A stretch of 64,000 nucleotides of DNA, from NCBI GenBank assembly GCA_963701295.1, contig OY969585.1:1088001-1152000 (forward strand). Reading direction: 5' to 3'. Positions within the stretch are counted from its first letter, which is position 1. Every line of letters starts with the position of its first letter. This DNA comes from Ignavibacteriota bacterium (GTDB lineage: Bacteria > Bacteroidota > Ignavibacteria > UBA10030). A model generated the notes under the pieces. It did not search any database and had not been told where the DNA came from. It was given only the letters and a program-made list of their open reading frames with translations. Below are positions 55,360 to 64,000 of this stretch, one piece after another. A program made the translations under genes and the position numbers.

Positions 55360-56265
55360 ATGAAGATACTACGGCTCATCTTCTGGTCTTTTCTGTTTTC
55401 TGCCTTGGCACTTACTCTGAGCGATCAAGTTCTCTATAGATTTTGGCTTGTTCCTCAGCTTTCATCGCTCCAACAGGTTCCCTTTTATAGTTTTTTACTT
55501 GTTTTTTCCCCGATGGTGCTCGTCGTCATATTCTTTGGATGGATGCTCACATCGTGGAAACAGGTATGTCTTATCGCGTTCATTGTCGCATTGAGCCATC
55601 AGATCCATGATTCTCTCTGTATGTCTCTCGGGTCTCCGGGGTATTTCATGAGTTATGCGCCGGAAAATCCCTACACCTTTTGGCTTCTTCGTTCATTCTT
55701 GATGCTCTGCGTGTATGTGGCTGCGTTCAGTATCGTGTGGTACAGCAAAGTTGTTCTACAAAAAACATTTACCCGTCTTTCTTCTCGTCCTGTCTCACAT
55801 AGTAATCACGAGGAAATGGCGGCGCGTATAAACGATAATAAAAATGAGGATCGTATGCCTGCGAGAATTACATATCATGTTGTACCGGATCCGAGCGGCT
55901 GGCTTGTAAAAAAAGGAAGGGCAAAAAAAGCAAGCAGTGCTCATTCGACAAAAGAGGAAGCTCTGCGCGCTGCGAGCGATGTGGCAAAAAGTCATCCGCT
56001 GTCGCAGGTTGTCGTTCATAAGGCGTCCGGCGTTATTGAATCTGATCGAACCTTTGAATACAGGCACTACAAGAAGAAAAAAAAGAAAAAAGAAATCGGC
56101 AGAAAAATCAAAAAAGGATTGAAGCGAAATAAGCGGAAAGAAAGCGAACAACGCCTGCGGCGGCGAAAGGCGGCGCAGTTAGGAATTGCACGCTTGAAAA
56201 GAAAACGATATCTGCGGCGTCAAGCGGCAAAAAAGGGGGCACAGAAAAGAAAAAATAAGCGATAG
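55360..56265 (+). CDS. 4-TM domain fused in frame to a DUF2188-like domain and an extremely basic tail
   Basis: YHVVPDPSGWLVKK...TKEEA...VVHKASGVIE; internal SD and ATG at 55855. Confidence 0.65.
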   Translation: MKILRLIFWSFLFSALALTLSDQVLYRFWLVPQLSSLQQVPFYSFLLVFSPMVLVVIFFGWMLTSWKQVCLIAFIVALSHQIHDSLCMSLGSPGYFMSYAPENPYTFWLLRSFLMLCVYVAAFSIVWYSKVVLQKTFTRLSSRPVSHSNHEEMAARINDNKNEDRMPARITYHVVPDPSGWLVKKGRAKKASSAHSTKEEALRAASDVAKSHPLSQVVVHKASGVIESDRTFEYRHYKKKKKKKEIGRKIKKGLKRNKRKESEQRLRRRKAAQLGIARLKRKRYLRRQAAKKGAQKRKNKR

Positions 56266-57458: not shown

Positions 57459-58028
57459 ATGAAAGAATCGTTTCCCAAAGCAATATTCTCGCGAAAACGG
57501 ATCGCTTTAATAATAGTATTTTTAATTATTACAATATTCGTTATAGGCTATTTATACCTTCAAAGCCAATTCGATTTTCCTCCTCCTATCATAGGAGAAA
57601 AAATGTCGCCAGCGATAGTACAAACACTTGATGGTAAAAATGTATCTATTTATTCATTCCTTGTAAAAAAAAGTATCGTAATGTTCTTTTGGACAGATTG
57701 TTCTCATTGTAAGAATGAAATAACCGATATACTTTCGTTGTATCCTGTTTTGAAAGATTCAATGAATATCGTTGGTATTTCATTTAGTGGTAAAGAACAA
57801 ACTGTTGACTTCATTATAACATCGGGAATTAAATTTCCCGTATTCCGTGATGTGAACTGGGAAGCCAAAAATAGTTTTCATGCAAATGTAACTCCATCGA
57901 TATTTTTTGTAGATTCAAGACAGCGATTAGTAAAGTATAAATTTGGAGAGCAAAGTAAAAAGCAATTGGGTGCAATGTTGCTTTGGTTTGCTAATATAAC
58001 TCCGGATTCAACACTTAAACAATTATGA
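57459..58028 (+). CDS. Membrane-anchored TlpA/ResA-like thioredoxin
   Basis: N-terminal TM; FFWTDCSHC; cis-Pro VTPS. Confidence 0.85.
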   Translation: MKESFPKAIFSRKRIALIIVFLIITIFVIGYLYLQSQFDFPPPIIGEKMSPAIVQTLDGKNVSIYSFLVKKSIVMFFWTDCSHCKNEITDILSLYPVLKDSMNIVGISFSGKEQTVDFIITSGIKFPVFRDVNWEAKNSFHANVTPSIFFVDSRQRLVKYKFGEQSKKQLGAMLLWFANITPDSTLKQL

Positions 58029-58561
58029 AGCAGAAAAAAATAATTGCCGCAATAGTTTTAATCGCAAGTGTTGCCGGGCTCAGTGCAATCTGCTGGTTTT
58101 TACAAAAGCCGCATGCAGATAGAATACTCTCAGCTTGGATGATAAATGCGGAATACATTGGCGACGACGGTATTGTCATGCAAACAAAGCACAATAGCTG
58201 CGGGCCCAGCGCTCTGAAAATGATATTTGATCACTACAATATTTCTTCCTCGCTGAAAGAGATTGAGCAGAGTGTCAATCTTACCCAAAAAGGTTCGTCA
58301 ATGCTTGCATTGAAGGAAATGGCAGAACTGAGAGGATTAAAAGCAGAAGGATGGCGCTTCACGTTGGAAGATTTTCTGCGTTCCTCATTTCCATCGATTC
58401 TCTATGTGAATAAGGATCACTACATCGTTGCGGATAGCGTATCTGTGGATGGTAATGTATATGTTTGCGATCCTGCTATTGGCAAACTTCGGATATCTAA
58501 GGAAAAGCTCAATAAAATTTGGGGGGGGGCGAAACGTTGGTGTTTGAGAAAAAGTAAATAG
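58025..58561 (+). CDS. Stand-alone C39 cysteine peptidase with an N-terminal signal/anchor
   Basis: QTKHNSCGPSAL (Gln/Cys), DHYIV (His), CDPAIG (Asp); no ABC domain. Confidence 0.88.
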   Translation: MKQKKIIAAIVLIASVAGLSAICWFLQKPHADRILSAWMINAEYIGDDGIVMQTKHNSCGPSALKMIFDHYNISSSLKEIEQSVNLTQKGSSMLALKEMAELRGLKAEGWRFTLEDFLRSSFPSILYVNKDHYIVADSVSVDGNVYVCDPAIGKLRISKEKLNKIWGGAKRWCLRKSK

Positions 58562-58627
58562 TGAATAGTAAATAGTAAATAGAAATAGGAGATCTAAAAT
58601 CGTAAATTGGCAATCGTAAGTCGGAAA
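58552..58627 (+). repeat. Degenerate 7-mer tandem array
   Basis: aagtaaa tagtgaa tagtaaa tagtaaa ... tcgtaaa ttggcaa tcgtaag tcggaaa. Confidence 0.65.
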
Positions 58628-58642
58628 TTAAGTATAACTCCT

Positions 58643-58742
58643 TGCTCACTGGTTTGTTCATTGCGAATGAAGAAGAAGCACTTGGTTGGCCCCCTTAGAG
58701 CTGAATTGGAATTCGCTGTGAAGAAACGGGCCACAGTGAGCA
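58643..58742 (+). ncRNA. Predicted structured leader RNA (three-way junction) upstream of the peptide gene
   Basis: Stems TGCTCACTG/CAGTGAGCA, TTCATT/AATGAA and TGGCCC/GGGCCA, the last enclosing GAATT/AATTC. Confidence 0.5.
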
Positions 58743-58788
58743 GAAAATAATAAACTAACAATAAACAAATAACATAAAGGAGGTACAT

Positions 58789-58935
58789 ATGAGTGCAGGA
58801 TGTTGGTGGGCTGTAGCAGGAATGGGTGTTGCTATGATGGGTGCCTGTGCTATTACAGGTGGCTTGTCAGCAATCGTTTGGGGCGCTAGTTTGTTGACCT
58901 CAACAGGAGGTCTTATTTCTGGTTGCGGTGGTTAA
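58789..58935 (+). CDS. 48-aa hydrophobic Cys/Gly-rich putative precursor peptide (not in ORF track)
   Basis: SD AAGGAGGT 58777-58784; MSAGCWWAVAGMGVAMMGACAITGGLSAIVWGASLLTSTGGLISGCGG*. Confidence 0.85.
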   Translation: MSAGCWWAVAGMGVAMMGACAITGGLSAIVWGASLLTSTGGLISGCGG

Positions 58936-58946
58936 TCTCAATAGTT

Positions 58947-58977
58947 CTGTTGGGCGGGATGAATTCCCGCTCAACAG
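58947..58977 (+). terminator. Strong hairpin after the peptide gene (partial terminator or mRNA stabiliser)
   Basis: CTGTTGGGCGGGA / TCCCGCTCAACAG; no long U tract. Confidence 0.7.
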
Positions 58978-59005
58978 TTCAAACATCATTTCTAGAGGAA
59001 ATGAA

Positions 59006-59758
59006 ATGTATAATTTTAAAATATTGAAAATTATTTATGAGTTAAACACAACTCTTTCGAAGCGTGTAAAAAAGTTTGAGTGGTTTTATATCACTTTAAT
59101 TGGTTTTGCCTGCCTCTTCCTTGGAGTGATAATTGGAGTTCCGTTATTTACAAAATTGGTGAAATTTCGGGACGAAATGGACTTCAAAAATGCATTAAAT
59201 TTTATCCCAATTTTAGTTCTCCTAATTGATCTCATCCCAACGATATTGCGCTATCAGTATAAAACACTTATCGAGAAACGTCATTTAAGTATTTTCCCTA
59301 TAAAAAGATTGCACACACTTTGGTTTCATTATTTTCTCTGGCTCTCTGATATTAAAAATGCTACTTATATCGTTTGTTTATTATCATTTCAAATATATTT
59401 CCTTGCTCTGTCTATGTTTATTGGTGCTCTTTTGAGTTCATTGTTATGGTTGTTTTTCTTTCTAACAGTAATAACTGGATATCTCATTTTATTTGAATTG
59501 TATAGTGACGTCTTAATGAAATATCGACAACACGCAATAAGCTTTTTTTTTCTTCTGTTAATCTTGGTGAATGCTATAAGAATTATCGGTCGTGAAGACT
59601 TTTATTCCTCTATTCCAATCACTAGCTTTGTGGGAAACGGGCTCTATGCGCTTTCTGTCGGAAACTTTTCTGTTGCTTCATGGAATCTCTTGCTACTATT
59701 ATCCTCGTTTTCTATAGGCGTGTCACTTCTTATCTTCTTAAACCCTAAGAGACGATGA
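59006..59758 (+). CDS. Multi-TM protein, putative ABC permease or immunity subunit
   Basis: About 6 TMs; coupled in an operon to the ABC ATPase. Confidence 0.65.
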   Translation: MYNFKILKIIYELNTTLSKRVKKFEWFYITLIGFACLFLGVIIGVPLFTKLVKFRDEMDFKNALNFIPILVLLIDLIPTILRYQYKTLIEKRHLSIFPIKRLHTLWFHYFLWLSDIKNATYIVCLLSFQIYFLALSMFIGALLSSLLWLFFFLTVITGYLILFELYSDVLMKYRQHAISFFFLLLILVNAIRIIGREDFYSSIPITSFVGNGLYALSVGNFSVASWNLLLLLSSFSIGVSLLIFLNPKRR

Positions 59759-60426
59759 CTTATTATCGGTTTATTCTTTTGTTAATAACTCAATTCAAAT
59801 TATTGAATCGCTATTTAAGGATTCCGGTGCTATTTATTCTACTTTTTCTTTATACATTTGCTTTTGCTTTTCTAAAACATGCTTTTGGTAAACCTATTCA
59901 TCTTCCATTCGTAACGATGATTATTAATATTTTATTCATCGGTTTTCTTTTCAGTGAATATTTCATAGCAGGTGTTAATGAAAAGATATTCTACGCAATC
60001 TTTTCATCAAAAATAAGAAATATAGTATTAACGAATAATGTCGCTTTAATGATTATTATTTGGATTTTGCCAATACCAATATTTATCATCGAACTTATTT
60101 ATTTCTCATCAACATGGCATGAAATATATGATGCCTTGCAGTATGTAGTTATAACAACGCCTGGTTATGTTTATCTATTAGACATATTTTCTACATCTAT
60201 AAAAAAACCAACACGATATATTTCTACGTTTGTACAAATGTTTCTTCAAGTAATCAATATTCTTCTTGCATCTACTCCGTACGCAATATTGCACTTATGG
60301 AGCACATCTAATATCCTTTATATAATTGTCTGTCTGTTCATATTTTGTTTTTGGTACTTTTATGGAGTTACAAGTATTGTCAACTATTTTCGTCAGAGTA
60401 TAATCGGAGCTATTCAAAACCAATGA
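59755..60426 (+). CDS. Multi-TM protein, putative ABC permease subunit
   Basis: About 6 TMs; ATGA overlaps at both ends. Confidence 0.65.
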   Translation: MTYYRFILLLITQFKLLNRYLRIPVLFILLFLYTFAFAFLKHAFGKPIHLPFVTMIINILFIGFLFSEYFIAGVNEKIFYAIFSSKIRNIVLTNNVALMIIIWILPIPIFIIELIYFSSTWHEIYDALQYVVITTPGYVYLLDIFSTSIKKPTRYISTFVQMFLQVINILLASTPYAILHLWSTSNILYIIVCLFIFCFWYFYGVTSIVNYFRQSIIGAIQNQ

Positions 60427-61208
60427 ATGCGATTGAAATACAAGACCTACAAAAAACCTATAAGAATAAGGTAATTGCATTAAATTCATTGAATCTTAAT
60501 GTTCCAAAATCTTGTATTTTAGGATTGCTTGGTCTAAACGGTGCTGGAAAATCTACAACCATCAACATACTCGCAGGTATTTTACAGAAAACTGATGGAC
60601 GTATTCTCATTTATGACAAAGAGATTAATGATGATGAGTATGAATACAAGAGTTACACTGGATTTGTGCTCGAGCGACCACACTATTTTGAAAAGCTCTC
60701 CGTAGAAGAGTACTTAGAATTTGTCGGTGCGATGTATGGTCTTGATGTTCACGAAATAAAAAAGCGGACAAATGAGTTACTTGAGTTACTTGAACTTCAA
60801 AGTAATAGGAGGCAATGGATTGAAACTTATTCAGCCGGAATGAAGAAAAAAGTTTCGCTTGCCGCTGCGATCATCCACAATCCCCAATTGTTAATTCTTG
60901 ACGAGCCGCTGGAGGGAATAGATCCAATCTCAGTAAAGCGAATTAAAGATATTCTGAAACTAATGGTACAAAACGGTGCAGCGATATTAATAACTTCTCA
61001 TGTTCTTGATACAATAGAAAAAATTTGCGATGAAATTGCAATAATAAATAAAGGAGAAATCATCTTTCGATCAAAAACTGAAGAGATTCGAGCTAGAATT
61101 AAAAACGAATTTACTCATGAAACCTATCAATCATTGGAAGAAATATTCATCGATGTCGTTAATAATAAGAATGGAGAAAAGCCGAAAGGAAGATTATCAT
61201 GGCTATAG
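60423..61208 (+). CDS. ABC transporter ATP-binding protein (exporter type)
   Basis: GLNGAGKST, YSAGMKK, ILDEP, TSH. Confidence 0.95.
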   Translation: MNAIEIQDLQKTYKNKVIALNSLNLNVPKSCILGLLGLNGAGKSTTINILAGILQKTDGRILIYDKEINDDEYEYKSYTGFVLERPHYFEKLSVEEYLEFVGAMYGLDVHEIKKRTNELLELLELQSNRRQWIETYSAGMKKKVSLAAAIIHNPQLLILDEPLEGIDPISVKRIKDILKLMVQNGAAILITSHVLDTIEKICDEIAIINKGEIIFRSKTEEIRARIKNEFTHETYQSLEEIFIDVVNNKNGEKPKGRLSWL

Positions 61209-61909
61209 CACTATCCAATATTGTAAATATATTTGCAATCCCGAATGATGTTTTTCAAAACATTAAAACAAGCCCGAAATGGCTTATAGCATTTTTATTT
61301 ATGTTTATTGTAAGCGCAACCTGTGGATATTTTATGGAACCATTCACACAAAAAGTTATGGAACACACTCTTTCCGCTAAAATGAGCGATGAGCAAGTTC
61401 GGCAAACTTTGGATGTGGCTTCAAGATTTCATTTTCTTTTGCTTTTGTTCTCTGCTGTTCCATTATTTGCAAAATGGCTGTTTATTTCGTTATTCCTATA
61501 TTTGGGTGCAATTCTATTGAATGCAGAAAAAACGAATTTTAGAAATATTTATTCAGCCGTAGTTCATTCAGAACTTATTTTATTGCTCATGCTTATGTTG
61601 AATGTCCTTATTTTGCATGTTAAAGGAGTAGAGTCAGTAAATAATATAACAGATCTTAACGCAATTATTGGATTAGAATACTTTCTTGGAGATAAAATAC
61701 ACAATATACCTTTGTACACTTTCCTTAATAACTTCAATGTCTTTTCGATTTGGTATCTTGTCATCCTCATAATCGGCATATCGGTTATTTGCCAAATAGA
61801 AAAATGGAAATCTGCAATATTAGTCTCATCAGTGTTGTTGCTGGGTGTAGGTGTCCAAGTTGCTTTTGTTTCCTTGTCCGAAAATATGCAGCATATGATG
61901 GGGAGTTGA
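61199..61909 (+). CDS. Yip1 domain membrane protein
   Basis: IFAIPNDVFQNIKTSPKW...NVFSIWYLVILIIG; 5 TMs. Confidence 0.8.
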   Translation: MAIALSNIVNIFAIPNDVFQNIKTSPKWLIAFLFMFIVSATCGYFMEPFTQKVMEHTLSAKMSDEQVRQTLDVASRFHFLLLLFSAVPLFAKWLFISLFLYLGAILLNAEKTNFRNIYSAVVHSELILLLMLMLNVLILHVKGVESVNNITDLNAIIGLEYFLGDKIHNIPLYTFLNNFNVFSIWYLVILIIGISVICQIEKWKSAILVSSVLLLGVGVQVAFVSLSENMQHMMGS

Positions 61910-62161
61910 ACGTGGGTAATTGAAATTTTCTTCCGAGTTTGTGAACTACCTGTTTATGTTTATTGACACAATACAACGAGCTATTCATAAAGCCAATCCA
62001 AAATATTATTATCTACAATTTTAACAAATTCAGATGAATTAAGTATAACACTACGATATTCCGTTAATTTCCTAGTTCTAAGCAATTGGGCTTTAGCGTT
62101 AATTATAATCTTTAATTTGGGTTTGGGAATATATATAGCGTGTTGTGATAGTGAATACACT

Positions 62162-64000
62162 ATGAAAAATAAAATAGCATCCTTCTTCGATTATTCATTT
62201 ATAGGGATCACTTACGCCTTAATATTTGCGACAATTTATGGATTGTTCAACCTCAGCATTTTATTTTTTATTGTGTTCGTGATCTATTTGGTTAAAAATA
62301 TTTTCCTCGATGATTTTAACTCTGATATATTCCGTTATACGTGGTTTGATTTAGCGATTCTATTGGTTGCTGTTGCAGAGGGAGTAAGCTATATCGCCTC
62401 AACTTATCATGAGAACAGCTTTTACAGTGTTGCCGATATTTCTTTTTTTATTCTTTTCTATTATTGGGTAAGATTTAATCTAAAGTACGATTATCAGCGA
62501 AGAGCAATATTTTTATTTATAACGGTTCTAGGAGTATATTTATTTTTAGACGGCATGTTGACATTTCTTTCGGGTTACTCTCAAATGAAGTCGGCTGGTT
62601 TAAACGACTTTAATGAGTTCAGGCACCTCCTTTCTTTTGGCTCACCAGTTGGCACACCAACTGCAGAATGGAGTACAATTTATCTCGCATGCCTGCCGTT
62701 TTCATTAATACTATTTTTTACAAAATTCAAAAAGGATAAACGGGAATCATTGCTTTTATTGATTCCGGCAATCTTTATTTTAACAATCCCTGTGATTTCG
62801 TGTTTCAGGGGAATGTATTTTGCTATTGCATCTTTTGCACTCTTTGGAAGCGCTTTATTCCTATTGTATAAACTATCTTCCTTTAGGAAAGTTCTTCTGT
62901 TTAATTCGTTATTTTTCTTTTCGATAGGATTGGTTGTTGTCATATCACCTTTCTTCAAACCTGTATTGACAACTATTTCTATGTTTCAAACTATGTCACA
63001 AGTCCGTAGTTTTGAAGGCAGGAAAAGTCTTTGGAAAACAGGTATCGAGATGATAAAGGATCATCCACTCACAGGAATTGGCTCTAACAATTTTCCAATA
63101 AAGTATTTCTCGTATAAAGATCAAAAAGATAACACACCTTATGCAGGCAGAGTTTTTAACACATTTTTGCAGATTACGATCGAAAAAGGATTGATCGGTT
63201 TGTTTGCGTTTGACATTTTAATAATTGCATTCTTCTTTGTTTCTCACCGAAAGATTAAATTATTAACCGATAATTGGGACCAAAAGGCTACTGTCGTTTT
63301 ATTTATGAGCGCGTTTACAGCAATCATTATAAGAGATTTAAGTTATTCTTCTATATTTTATAATAGAGGGGCAGATCTGCTCATTTGGTTTATGTTTGCT
63401 GACAATGCTCAAGTGCCCAATAATAAAATTTCTTCAGATTCTAGTTGTCGCAAAAAAGCAATCTTACTCTTTCCAGTTCTTATTGGCTCAATTATATTCT
63501 TGCCAATTGCGTTGAATTCTATTCAAAAAGGGAAAGCAGAAAGTCAACTTCTTTCATTTATCGAACAATTAAATCATAAAAAATCTGTTGATGCTCAACA
63601 GAACATCGAATCTGCAATTCAGTTATGTCCAGAGAATGCCTATTATAGAGCCTGCCGAGGATTGTTATCGGATAGAATGATAAATAACAAGTTCAATGTC
63701 GAAGAGTATCTTGAAAATAAATCGTTGTTGACCAAGGCAGACAAAGAGCAGATTAAGATAGGGATTACGTCTTATAATAAAGCGTTAGAGTTAAATCCGA
63801 CTGATGATGAATTCTATCATAATCTTGGATGGTTATATATTATCAATCAAGATGAGAAGCAGGCTGAATATTGTTTACATCAATCAATTCAAATAGACAA
63901 TAATGCGGCAATTCCTCATATCAGTTTAGGGATCTTAAAAGAAAGAAATGGCGAGAAGGACAGTGCTCTAACAGAATATAGTACTGCTATTTGTAGGCTT
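62162..64000 (+). CDS. O-antigen-ligase (Wzy_C)-like membrane protein with C-terminal TPRs, 3' end outside window
   Basis: Manual translation: MKNKIASFF...GRKSLWKTGIEMIKDHPLTGIGSNNF...FNTFLQITIEKGLIG...YNKALELNPTDDEFYHNLGWLY. Confidence 0.85.
   Translation, partial: MKNKIASFFDYSFIGITYALIFATIYGLFNLSILFFIVFVIYLVKNIFLDDFNSDIFRYTWFDLAILLVAVAEGVSYIASTYHENSFYSVADISFFILFYYWVRFNLKYDYQRRAIFLFITVLGVYLFLDGMLTFLSGYSQMKSAGLNDFNEFRHLLSFGSPVGTPTAEWSTIYLACLPFSLILFFTKFKKDKRESLLLLIPAIFILTIPVISCFRGMYFAIASFALFGSALFLLYKLSSFRKVLLFNSLFFFSIGLVVVISPFFKPVLTTISMFQTMSQVRSFEGRKSLWKTGIEMIKDHPLTGIGSNNFPIKYFSYKDQKDNTPYAGRVFNTFLQITIEKGLIGLFAFDILIIAFFFVSHRKIKLLTDNWDQKATVVLFMSAFTAIIIRDLSYSSIFYNRGADLLIWFMFADNAQVPNNKISSDSSCRKKAILLFPVLIGSIIFLPIALNSIQKGKAESQLLSFIEQLNHKKSVDAQQNIESAIQLCPENAYYRACRGLLSDRMINNKFNVEEYLENKSLLTKADKEQIKIGITSYNKALELNPTDDEFYHNLGWLYIINQDEKQAEYCLHQSIQIDNNAAIPHISLGILKERNGEKDSALTEYSTAICRL

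Follow-up and report, generated by a model that had tools for sequence, protein, structure and literature searches.

The window, that is, the whole 64,000-nucleotide stretch analyzed here, carries on its forward strand a run of genes encoding, in order, a redoxin, a C39 peptidase, a 48-residue peptide, two membrane proteins, an ABC ATPase, a Yip1-family protein and a Wzy_C/TPR protein (Table 1). GC content across the peptide locus lies mostly between 28 and 38%, against 42% for the genome, and a promoter scan of the locus stayed at chance level. Proteins encoded nearby have C-termini resembling secretion tags, which makes a Bacteroidota relative the likely host. The Atlas look-alikes of the first membrane protein (0.92-0.96) point to DUF5687 (10-27% of members), ABC_tran_2 (10%) and ABC_export (84%), which we take as a lead only. 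The Yip1/YknW-like protein, with a Yip1 match in 16 of 20 wide related loci, likely acts in self-protection or as a transporter accessory.

Table 1. Features of the peptide locus (window coordinates).
Feature	Position	Strand	Remarks
TlpA/ResA-like thioredoxin-fold protein	57459..58028	+	N-terminal membrane anchor; CSHC; AhpC-TSA E 3e-13; ResA E 4e-16, under model cut-off
Stand-alone C39 peptidase	58025..58561	+	N-terminal hydrophobic anchor; no ABC domains; PF03412 E 4e-27
G9 run	58521..58529	+	shifts the conserved C39 tail ETLVF (58531-58557) out of frame
RNA hairpin, ~105 nt, 5' UTR of precursor gene	58639..58745	+	apical loop UGGCCC complementary to 3' basal bulge GGGCCA; predicted pseudoknot
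Ribosome-binding site AAGGAGG	58777..58783	+	5 nt 5' of ATG; homologous to the site preceding the signal peptide in relatives
Core-only peptide gene	58789..58935	+	48 aa; predicted helical hairpin; C5/C46 conserved; without the ~42-residue signal + leader of its closest homologues
Strong hairpin, terminator-like or 3' stabilizer	58948..58978	+	directly 3' of the peptide stop; -25.3 kcal/mol
Membrane protein 1, likely ABC-exporter permease	59006..59758	+	no Pfam/NCBIfam match; homologues in L022, L023
Membrane protein 2, likely second permease subunit	59755..60426	+	no family match; same position in L022, L023, L024, L047
ABC ATPase, DrrA/lantibiotic-protection-like	60423..61208	+	PF00005 E 1e-27; TIGR01188 and TIGR03740 under cut-offs
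Yip1/YknW-like membrane protein	61199..61909	+	PF04893 E 1e-14; YknW_fam E 2e-19, under cut-off
O-antigen-ligase-like (Wzy_C) + TPR protein, accessory	62117..64000 (ends 64651)	+	PF04932 E 3e-17

The product of the peptide gene, MSAGCWWAVAGMGVAMMGACAITGGLSAIVWGASLLTSTGGLISGCGG, is 48 residues long, with Cys at 5, 20 and 46, TGGL at 23 and 39, glycine pairs at 24, 40 and 47, and a terminal CGG. It contains no Asp, Glu, Lys, Arg or His, has a net charge of 0 and a GRAVY of 1.19, and its computed unmodified mass is ~4492 Da. Translation confirms the description given in an earlier note on this DNA, which had singled out the chargeless ORF, its three Cys, the two TGGL motifs and the CGG terminus. 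A Pfam/NCBIfam scan of the peptide returned no match, and a PHROG search returned one family of unknown function at E 0.077. The AF2 model, computed from a 17-row alignment, places helices at residues 3-23 and 26-46 with a turn at the first GG (pLDDT 74.6, pTM 0.40), in agreement with the helical hairpin proposed in the earlier note; a Foldseek search of this model against the PDB gave nothing at E 10. The hairpin 3' of the gene comprises 13 bp (z -6.5; 0/200 shuffles); it yielded no terminator call and is devoid of a U-run.

A word-index search with the peptide as sole query returned no match, and a HMMER scan of 1.84 billion representatives returned a single protein, P0001 (90 aa, 74% identical). 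Follow-up searches retrieved 11 homologues in six clusters, 46-77% identical to the window core, with a best E of 2.7e-12. The peptide is also the only chargeless ORF among the 94 of the 3.64-Mb genome that start with ATG, span 35-100 aa and follow a GGAGG site. On both counts the ORF is more than a product of chance; it is a real gene. The window's own peptide is absent from the protein collection searched, in which short leaderless genes are under-called. Searches of viral contigs and plasmids gave no match, and P0002, compared with 277 genomes of the order, matched significantly only the genome of the window, the other four matches being weak (E 0.001-0.009). The sole metagenome match to P0001, L041, proved to be a V-ATPase subunit and was discarded as a false positive.

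In all 11 homologues the core is preceded by a GG-type leader, seven of them having a Sec signal in front of it and four the leader only. In the 90-residue proteins P0001-P0007 the signal peptide is followed by a leader/core junction of the type QMIQIIGA/EMDASCWW, and Met1 of the window peptide aligns with their Met44. L047/P0009 and P0010 carry a 15-residue leader ending in INGG immediately before the core, and P0011/P0012 read IEGG/KMSAGCWW, in which the first seven residues of the window peptide are present exactly. Met1 of the window peptide corresponds to the first or second residue past the cleavage site of its homologues (P1' or P2'). The statement that the peptide has no double-glycine leader is then correct for the window copy and wrong for its family.

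Since Cys5 and Cys46 are kept in 11/11 homologues, the predicted C5-C46 disulfide suggested in the earlier note is likely; the AF2 hairpin is compatible with such a staple, although no distance was returned with the prediction. Conservation of the other motifs did not follow. Position 20 is Val, Phe or Thr in 11/11 homologues, the C-terminus is C, CG or CRG and in none of the 11 GG, and the second TGGL is TGSL or missing. About 12 positions of the window core differ from the 90-residue homologues, including the loss of the sole Asp. As judged from this comparison, C20, the terminal GG and the second TGGL are private to the window copy, unlike the terminal Cys pair. The further chemistry that had been envisaged, with the internal and terminal GG acting as C39 trimming, cyclization or conjugation sites and C20 glycosylated or otherwise modified, could draw on a hairpin model that brings the two ends together, on the Wzy_C/TPR gene in the locus and on weak circular-bacteriocin look-alikes in the Atlas whose scores (0.78-0.79) fall within the range of shuffled sequences. 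We consider it highly improbable, given that none of the three features is conserved in any homologue, that the cores of relatives hold an even number of Cys in 42/44 cases, that Pfam/NCBIfam scans of the locus proteins found no GT2/SunS-type glycosyltransferase or SpoIIM/DUF95 protein, and that the Wzy_C/TPR gene occurs in one of the 20 wide related loci (L024, whose core has four Cys), several of these loci being cut by contig ends. The C39 site of the family appears instead to be the canonical GG/GA that ends the leader lost by the window copy. The alternative of a pilin-like subunit found no echo in the same scans, from which pilin families were absent.

The window C39 (178 aa; 95 bits against PF03412, cut-off 22) is the only C39 found in the genome. 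The catalytic Gln, Cys, His and Asp are present, C20 and H93 of the alignment are invariant in 18 rows, and 6mpz, the protease domain of LahT, scores best among PDB entries (E 2e-25). Three Lys stand ahead of the hydrophobic anchor, which, together with the precedent of FapD, suggests that the enzyme faces the periplasm. Its 3' end is altered in the assembly: ETLVFEKK and the stop codon that follows are encoded in a different frame from C39, so the last ~9 residues are frameshifted. A tail of the type W-x-G-E-T-L-V-F is found in 36/40 related C39 matches and, in a model of the intact L021 C39, forms a confident beta-strand (residues 127-135, mean pLDDT 92.6). As modeled, then, the frameshift removes the last predicted strand and leaves the fold incomplete in the assembly. 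On the plus strand of the genome no G run is longer than G9, which may reflect a slipped-strand change, phase variation or a consensus error. Short A-rich repeats (AGTAAAT/AGTGAAT units) lie directly after the C39 stop (58560-58590), with similar runs in L023 and L028.

The redoxin encoded upstream contains a hydrophobic 19-mer at residues 15-33. Redoxin matches in related loci carry CxHC in 37/42 cases and CPHC in 22/42, CPHC being the oxidizing motif of DsbA. The window redoxin is likely the disulfide oxidase for the core. The link to neighboring genes drawn in the earlier note is upheld by related loci, in which C39 and redoxin recur with precursors. C39 matches are patchily distributed, occurring in 26/85 other genomes of the family, in 2/15 other genomes of the genus and in 30/401 genomes sampled from the class; eight of the latter are distant, for the most part long frames of the PCAT type.

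DNA was examined for 20 wide regions and for narrower loci. The order typical of the family is a TlpA-like CxHC redoxin, a stand-alone N-anchored C39, an RNA hairpin, a signal + GG-leader precursor and ABC/Yip1 genes. The precursors begin with a basic N-terminus, continue through a hydrophobic stretch and a polar spacer to a GG-type leader, and end in a core that contains Cys; signal peptides were assigned by pattern and hydropathy rather than by SignalP. The 54 precursor genes in genome loci divide into 48 with signal and GG leader, three signal-only, two broken and the window; the latter is the only one without a signal, as both broken genes begin with signal-type sequence. A set of 44 precursors was compared, made up of the seven 90-aa proteins, L047 and 36 from related loci. 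L/I/V/M/A residues occupy leader position -12 in 43 of them, -7 in 43 and -4 in 36, and all three in 35, counts that are somewhat optimistic because cleavage sites were picked with a score rewarding these hydrophobics. The same -12/-7/-4 rule appears as C39 recognition for LahT in PMC10885120. Net charge is 0 or below in 42 of the 44 cores. Among 21 proteins scanned, none of the 17 precursors attained the cut-off of a bacteriocin family; sub-cut-off matches of precursors to HblD, NprX, JUQZ and others were read as signal-peptide or hydrophobicity matches.

Cores vary fast behind near-identical machinery. Within a single genome, L021 (9047-9391) and L022 (4520-4867) differ in their cores although redoxin, C39, UTR, signal and tail are near-identical, and L027, with three RNA copies, is another case of several copies per genome. 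The cores of L021-L023 also have in common a charged tail at the C-terminus, following CxG(S)GG, where a second processing step may occur. L047 places the core family of the window beside a C39-ABC transporter of 710 aa, accompanied by a redoxin, a MauE-like protein, an ATPase and two membrane proteins; no RNA element was found at L047:5077-11533. In two genomes, three C39 loci (L040/L068 and L075) lack an adjacent precursor, and a block of RNA, precursor and redoxin lies elsewhere. Signal-only six-Cys precursors without GG leader follow the RNA element in L083, L105, L108 and L104; the first three show no C39 match in the 1.5 kb upstream, and L104 is frameshifted with only a short C39 fragment upstream. 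In many loci (L016, L018-L020, L029-L031, L033-L039, L057, L059 and L064) a signal-bearing protein of ~170 aa and unknown family stands between precursor and Yip1 and replaces the two permeases and the ATPase, most cores there showing CC-x-D/N-x-W.

The RNA hairpin in the 5' UTR is a feature of the locus family in its own right (window 58639-58745; L021-L039, L053-L067, L079-L108). Across 22 sequences, 87% of cells are paired and two-sided changes occur in 35/47 pairs, which was reached in 0/500 shuffles and approached by no slid register; as the 22 sequences are related, the shuffle result is not a probability. A model built from them, applied to 14 C39 + precursor loci kept out of its construction, recovered a copy in 12 of them (L025 and L065 were missed, and L053 scored weakly); in nine PCAT-type or distant loci it found none. 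In the model-fitted alignment both sides change in 39/41 pairs. The loop-bulge pseudoknot is not part of the model; a match of at least five Watson-Crick pairs between loop and bulge is present in 21/22 and 12/12 sequences, compared with 157/342 and 21/118 when bulges were swapped. A search of Rfam 15 gave no match over 58639-58745 and two matches elsewhere (E 0.3 and 4). The hairpin is uncatalogued and, together with the locus family, new. It is present as a single copy in the window genome and in 26/151 genomes of the order, the window genome counted, and the 18 new places anchored by it comprise 12 signal + leader precursors, three signal-only cores, one frameshifted precursor and two places without precursor. 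Two RNA copies with no precursor behind them (L027:4847-4955 and L109) lie, by eye, one before a transposase-like ORF and the other, truncated, before a ROK-like regulator. The position of the element and the hairpin 3' of the gene suggest that it stabilizes the precursor mRNA; it could also be a processing site or a ribozyme.

How, then, should a core without export address be read? The window UTR matches those of L023 and L024 through GGAGG (blastn), and the RNA-to-ATG gap is 43 nt, within the 33-68 nt of relatives; the window gene therefore starts where the signal peptide of relatives starts and enters the core directly. This match through the ribosome-binding site also ruled out a reading of the window 5' UTR as a decayed short GG leader. 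We estimate at roughly 55% the probability that the 48-aa ORF is a degenerate allele of a Sec-exported, periplasm-matured, disulfide-closed and likely antibacterial peptide. Sec would carry the precursors of intact relatives over the inner membrane, their signal peptides being removed. GG/GA would be cleaved at the periplasmic face by the stand-alone C39 anchored there, and formation of the C5-C46 disulfide, around the hydrophobic helical hairpin, would fall to the CxHC redoxin. The mature peptide would then target the membranes of competitors, with ABC/Yip1 genes providing self-protection or release, both roles being suggested by the analogy with SDP and YknW (PMC6818787, PMC4887032). The pseudoknotted 5' hairpin and the 3' hairpin would stabilize the short precursor mRNA. 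The window genome would have lost, in frame, the segment between the start ATG and the Met of the core, and with it the export address and function, next to a frameshifted C39; such an ATG-to-Met loss, deduced from the proteins, is the simplest account. No remnant of signal + leader turned up elsewhere in the genome (best E 0.22 among the matches listed). Broken alleles recur in the family (L053, L104, the third L027 copy and L109), and the patchy presence in the genus as well as the low GC of the locus were counted in favor of this reading. In dN/dS comparisons aimed at relaxed selection, synonymous sites are saturated.

Against decay, the ORF, its ribosome-binding site, the RNA element and all locus genes except C39 are undamaged, and what the loss has left behind is nearly identical to the mature peptide as predicted, a result that would fit a working leaderless form too. 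Such a gene would yield the mature hairpin without processing; delivery to the membrane would depend on the first hydrophobic helix or on the ABC/Yip1 complex, oxidation would depend on the redoxin, and C39 would be dispensable and decaying. The position of Met1 at P1'/P2' of the family cleavage site, the retention of C5/C46, the damage confined to C39 and the fact that three signal-only precursors have already dropped the GG leader speak for this possibility, as does circularin A, for which a one-Met leader is enough according to PMC10028692. We nevertheless regard it as unlikely: neither any of the 11 homologues nor any of the 53 other precursor genes lacks both signal and leader, an ATG-to-ATG loss yields the identical junction without selection, and the peptide combines an odd Cys count with the lack of a positive N-region for Sec. 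A degenerate allele remains our preferred reading.

Both lesions could instead lie in the assembly, the strain itself having a full ~90-aa precursor and an intact C39, of which the consensus lost the signal-leader segment and over-called the G run. Runs such as G9 are places where long-read consensus errs, this one is the longest G run of the genome, and the assembly is a single contig. Against this, only 1/30 G/C 7-mers looks frameshift-like and completeness is 99.3%; a clean in-frame loss of ~126 nt would, moreover, be an unusual consensus error, and, as noted, no trace of the missing segment surfaced. NCBI, ENA and Logan all list C39 in precisely this frameshifted form, a weak argument as it comes from one contig. 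One public DNA run, and no RNA run, is listed for the sequence; contigs of the DNA run match 57550-57700 and 58295-58475 at at least 99%, with both lesions outside these segments. An artifact of assembly is in our judgment improbable.

The antibacterial role within the preferred reading is itself open to challenge, in that none of the 17 precursors scanned reached a bacteriocin family cut-off and the cores are neutral or acidic, unlike the basic bacteroidetocins. The cores might be structural or signaling, for example envelope or fiber subunits matured by a periplasmic C39, the window then holding a truncated allele. FapD, a Sec-exported periplasmic C39 needed for amyloid secretion (PMC5557850), offers a precedent; FilB and FapD models do match the window C39, although far under their cut-offs (E 3e-11 and 1e-9; 43.2/475 and 37.5/330 bits), and an mRNA held between stabilizing hairpins would suit an abundant product. 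Such a role for the family is distinctly unlikely, considering that different loci have unrelated cores, even where two loci of one genome have near-identical machinery, that L047 joins the same core to a classical GG leader and a C39-ABC transporter, and that the locus genes scanned include no outer-membrane usher, FapF-like pore, sensor kinase or pilus assembly genes.

In its workings the locus family resembles double-glycine class II bacteriocins, bacteroidetocins and SDP, yet having no PCAT, no family match and, in the window copy, no leader, it does not qualify as a member. Bacteroidetocins, as described in PMC6671954, are small Cys peptides of Bacteroidota with a 15-aa GG leader and an adjoining thiol oxidoreductase and membrane protein, and L047 reproduces this layout with the core of the window. 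Their C39 is fused to an ABC transporter, and bacteroidetocins A and B have basic cores of 42 aa that contain four Cys, whereas the window family has a stand-alone C39, in intact precursors an added Sec-type signal, and neutral or acidic cores without family match, the window copy being leaderless besides. PCAT-exported double-glycine class II bacteriocins (LahT, ComA, PCAT1; PMC10885120) share the C39 catalytic residues, the -12/-7/-4 hydrophobics, the GG/GA/GS site and a conserved leader before variable cores. The window family differs by a C39 without ABC domains and by a signal peptide before the leader; because the signal precedes the GG leader, the cut is predicted to take place in the periplasm. 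PMC12648112 keeps class II bacteriocins with a GG leader apart from those with a Sec leader, as two separate types. By the features that define class II bacteriocins and bacteroidetocins, the window has the oxidoreductase and the membrane protein, and has no GG leader, PCAT or curated core match.

The Bacillus SDP toxin and YknWXYZ (PMC6818787, PMC4887032) share with the family a signal and pro-region before a hydrophobic core of ~42 aa closed by one disulfide, cores that vary from homologue to homologue, and a Yip1-family protein with an ABC transporter in protection. The family differs from SDP by the absence of SdpA/SdpB and of YknX/YknZ-like genes and by a pro-region that is a short GG leader presumably cut by C39, and no sequence match to SdpC was found. 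Pseudomonas FapD resembles the window C39 as a stand-alone exported C39 acting on Sec-secreted substrates, but, according to PMC5557850, these substrates are amyloid subunits that lack canonical C39 sequences, and the Fap operon encodes an outer-membrane pore, of which the locus genes scanned show no counterpart. Glycocins (sublancin, enterocin F4-9; PMC8620827) also bring together a disulfide-forming redoxin, a C39 and a Cys-containing helical core, and some relatives of the window peptide have four Cys; the window, in turn, has neither a SunS-type glycosyltransferase nor a PCAT, and its odd Cys is not conserved.

Leaderless bacteriocins of the aureocin A53/lacticin Q type are not known to have a leader in any family member and have a cationic core; the window peptide has a net charge of 0, and leaders precede the core in all its homologues. 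Circular bacteriocins come with a SpoIIM/DUF95 protein in the cluster and a precursor family match; neither the peptide nor the membrane proteins had a SpoIIM/DUF95 Pfam match at E 0.1. The literature searched, which took in few subscription papers, contains no description of a stand-alone C39 that accompanies a precursor with both signal and GG leader, and the Fap system is the only stand-alone or periplasmic C39 found in it.

We hold as highly probable the architecture of the platform as an export and maturation route: a split PCAT in which Sec transport, an anchored periplasmic C39, a CxHC redoxin and exchangeable cores take the place of the fused transporter. A broader scheme, in which a 5' RNA controls the precursor mRNA of this platform and precursors take four forms, namely leader-only, signal + leader, signal-only and, as a working fourth, the addressless window that makes the mature hairpin, is unlikely as a whole, the working leaderless allele included. 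What is new is the locus family and its RNA element, the peptide itself being probably a damaged copy. The peptide nonetheless leads to dozens of loci that pair two export signals usually treated as alternatives, use C39 apart from its transporter and have an uncatalogued pseudoknotted RNA in common. They yield more than 50 candidate disulfide peptides, predicted from their genes, and an example, amenable to testing, of a single core that switches between export by PCAT and by Sec. The RNA element, in addition, is a marker that locates precursors overlooked by family scans.

Two observations concern the flanks of the locus. Behind the Wzy_C/TPR gene lies one for a protein of 691 aa whose GECVG motif is hydrolase-like (genome offsets 64651-66758), a pair that recurs in L024 only, and upstream of the redoxin a 301-aa ORF (55360-56265) combines a membrane N-terminus, a DUF2188 domain and a very basic Lys/Arg-rich tail.
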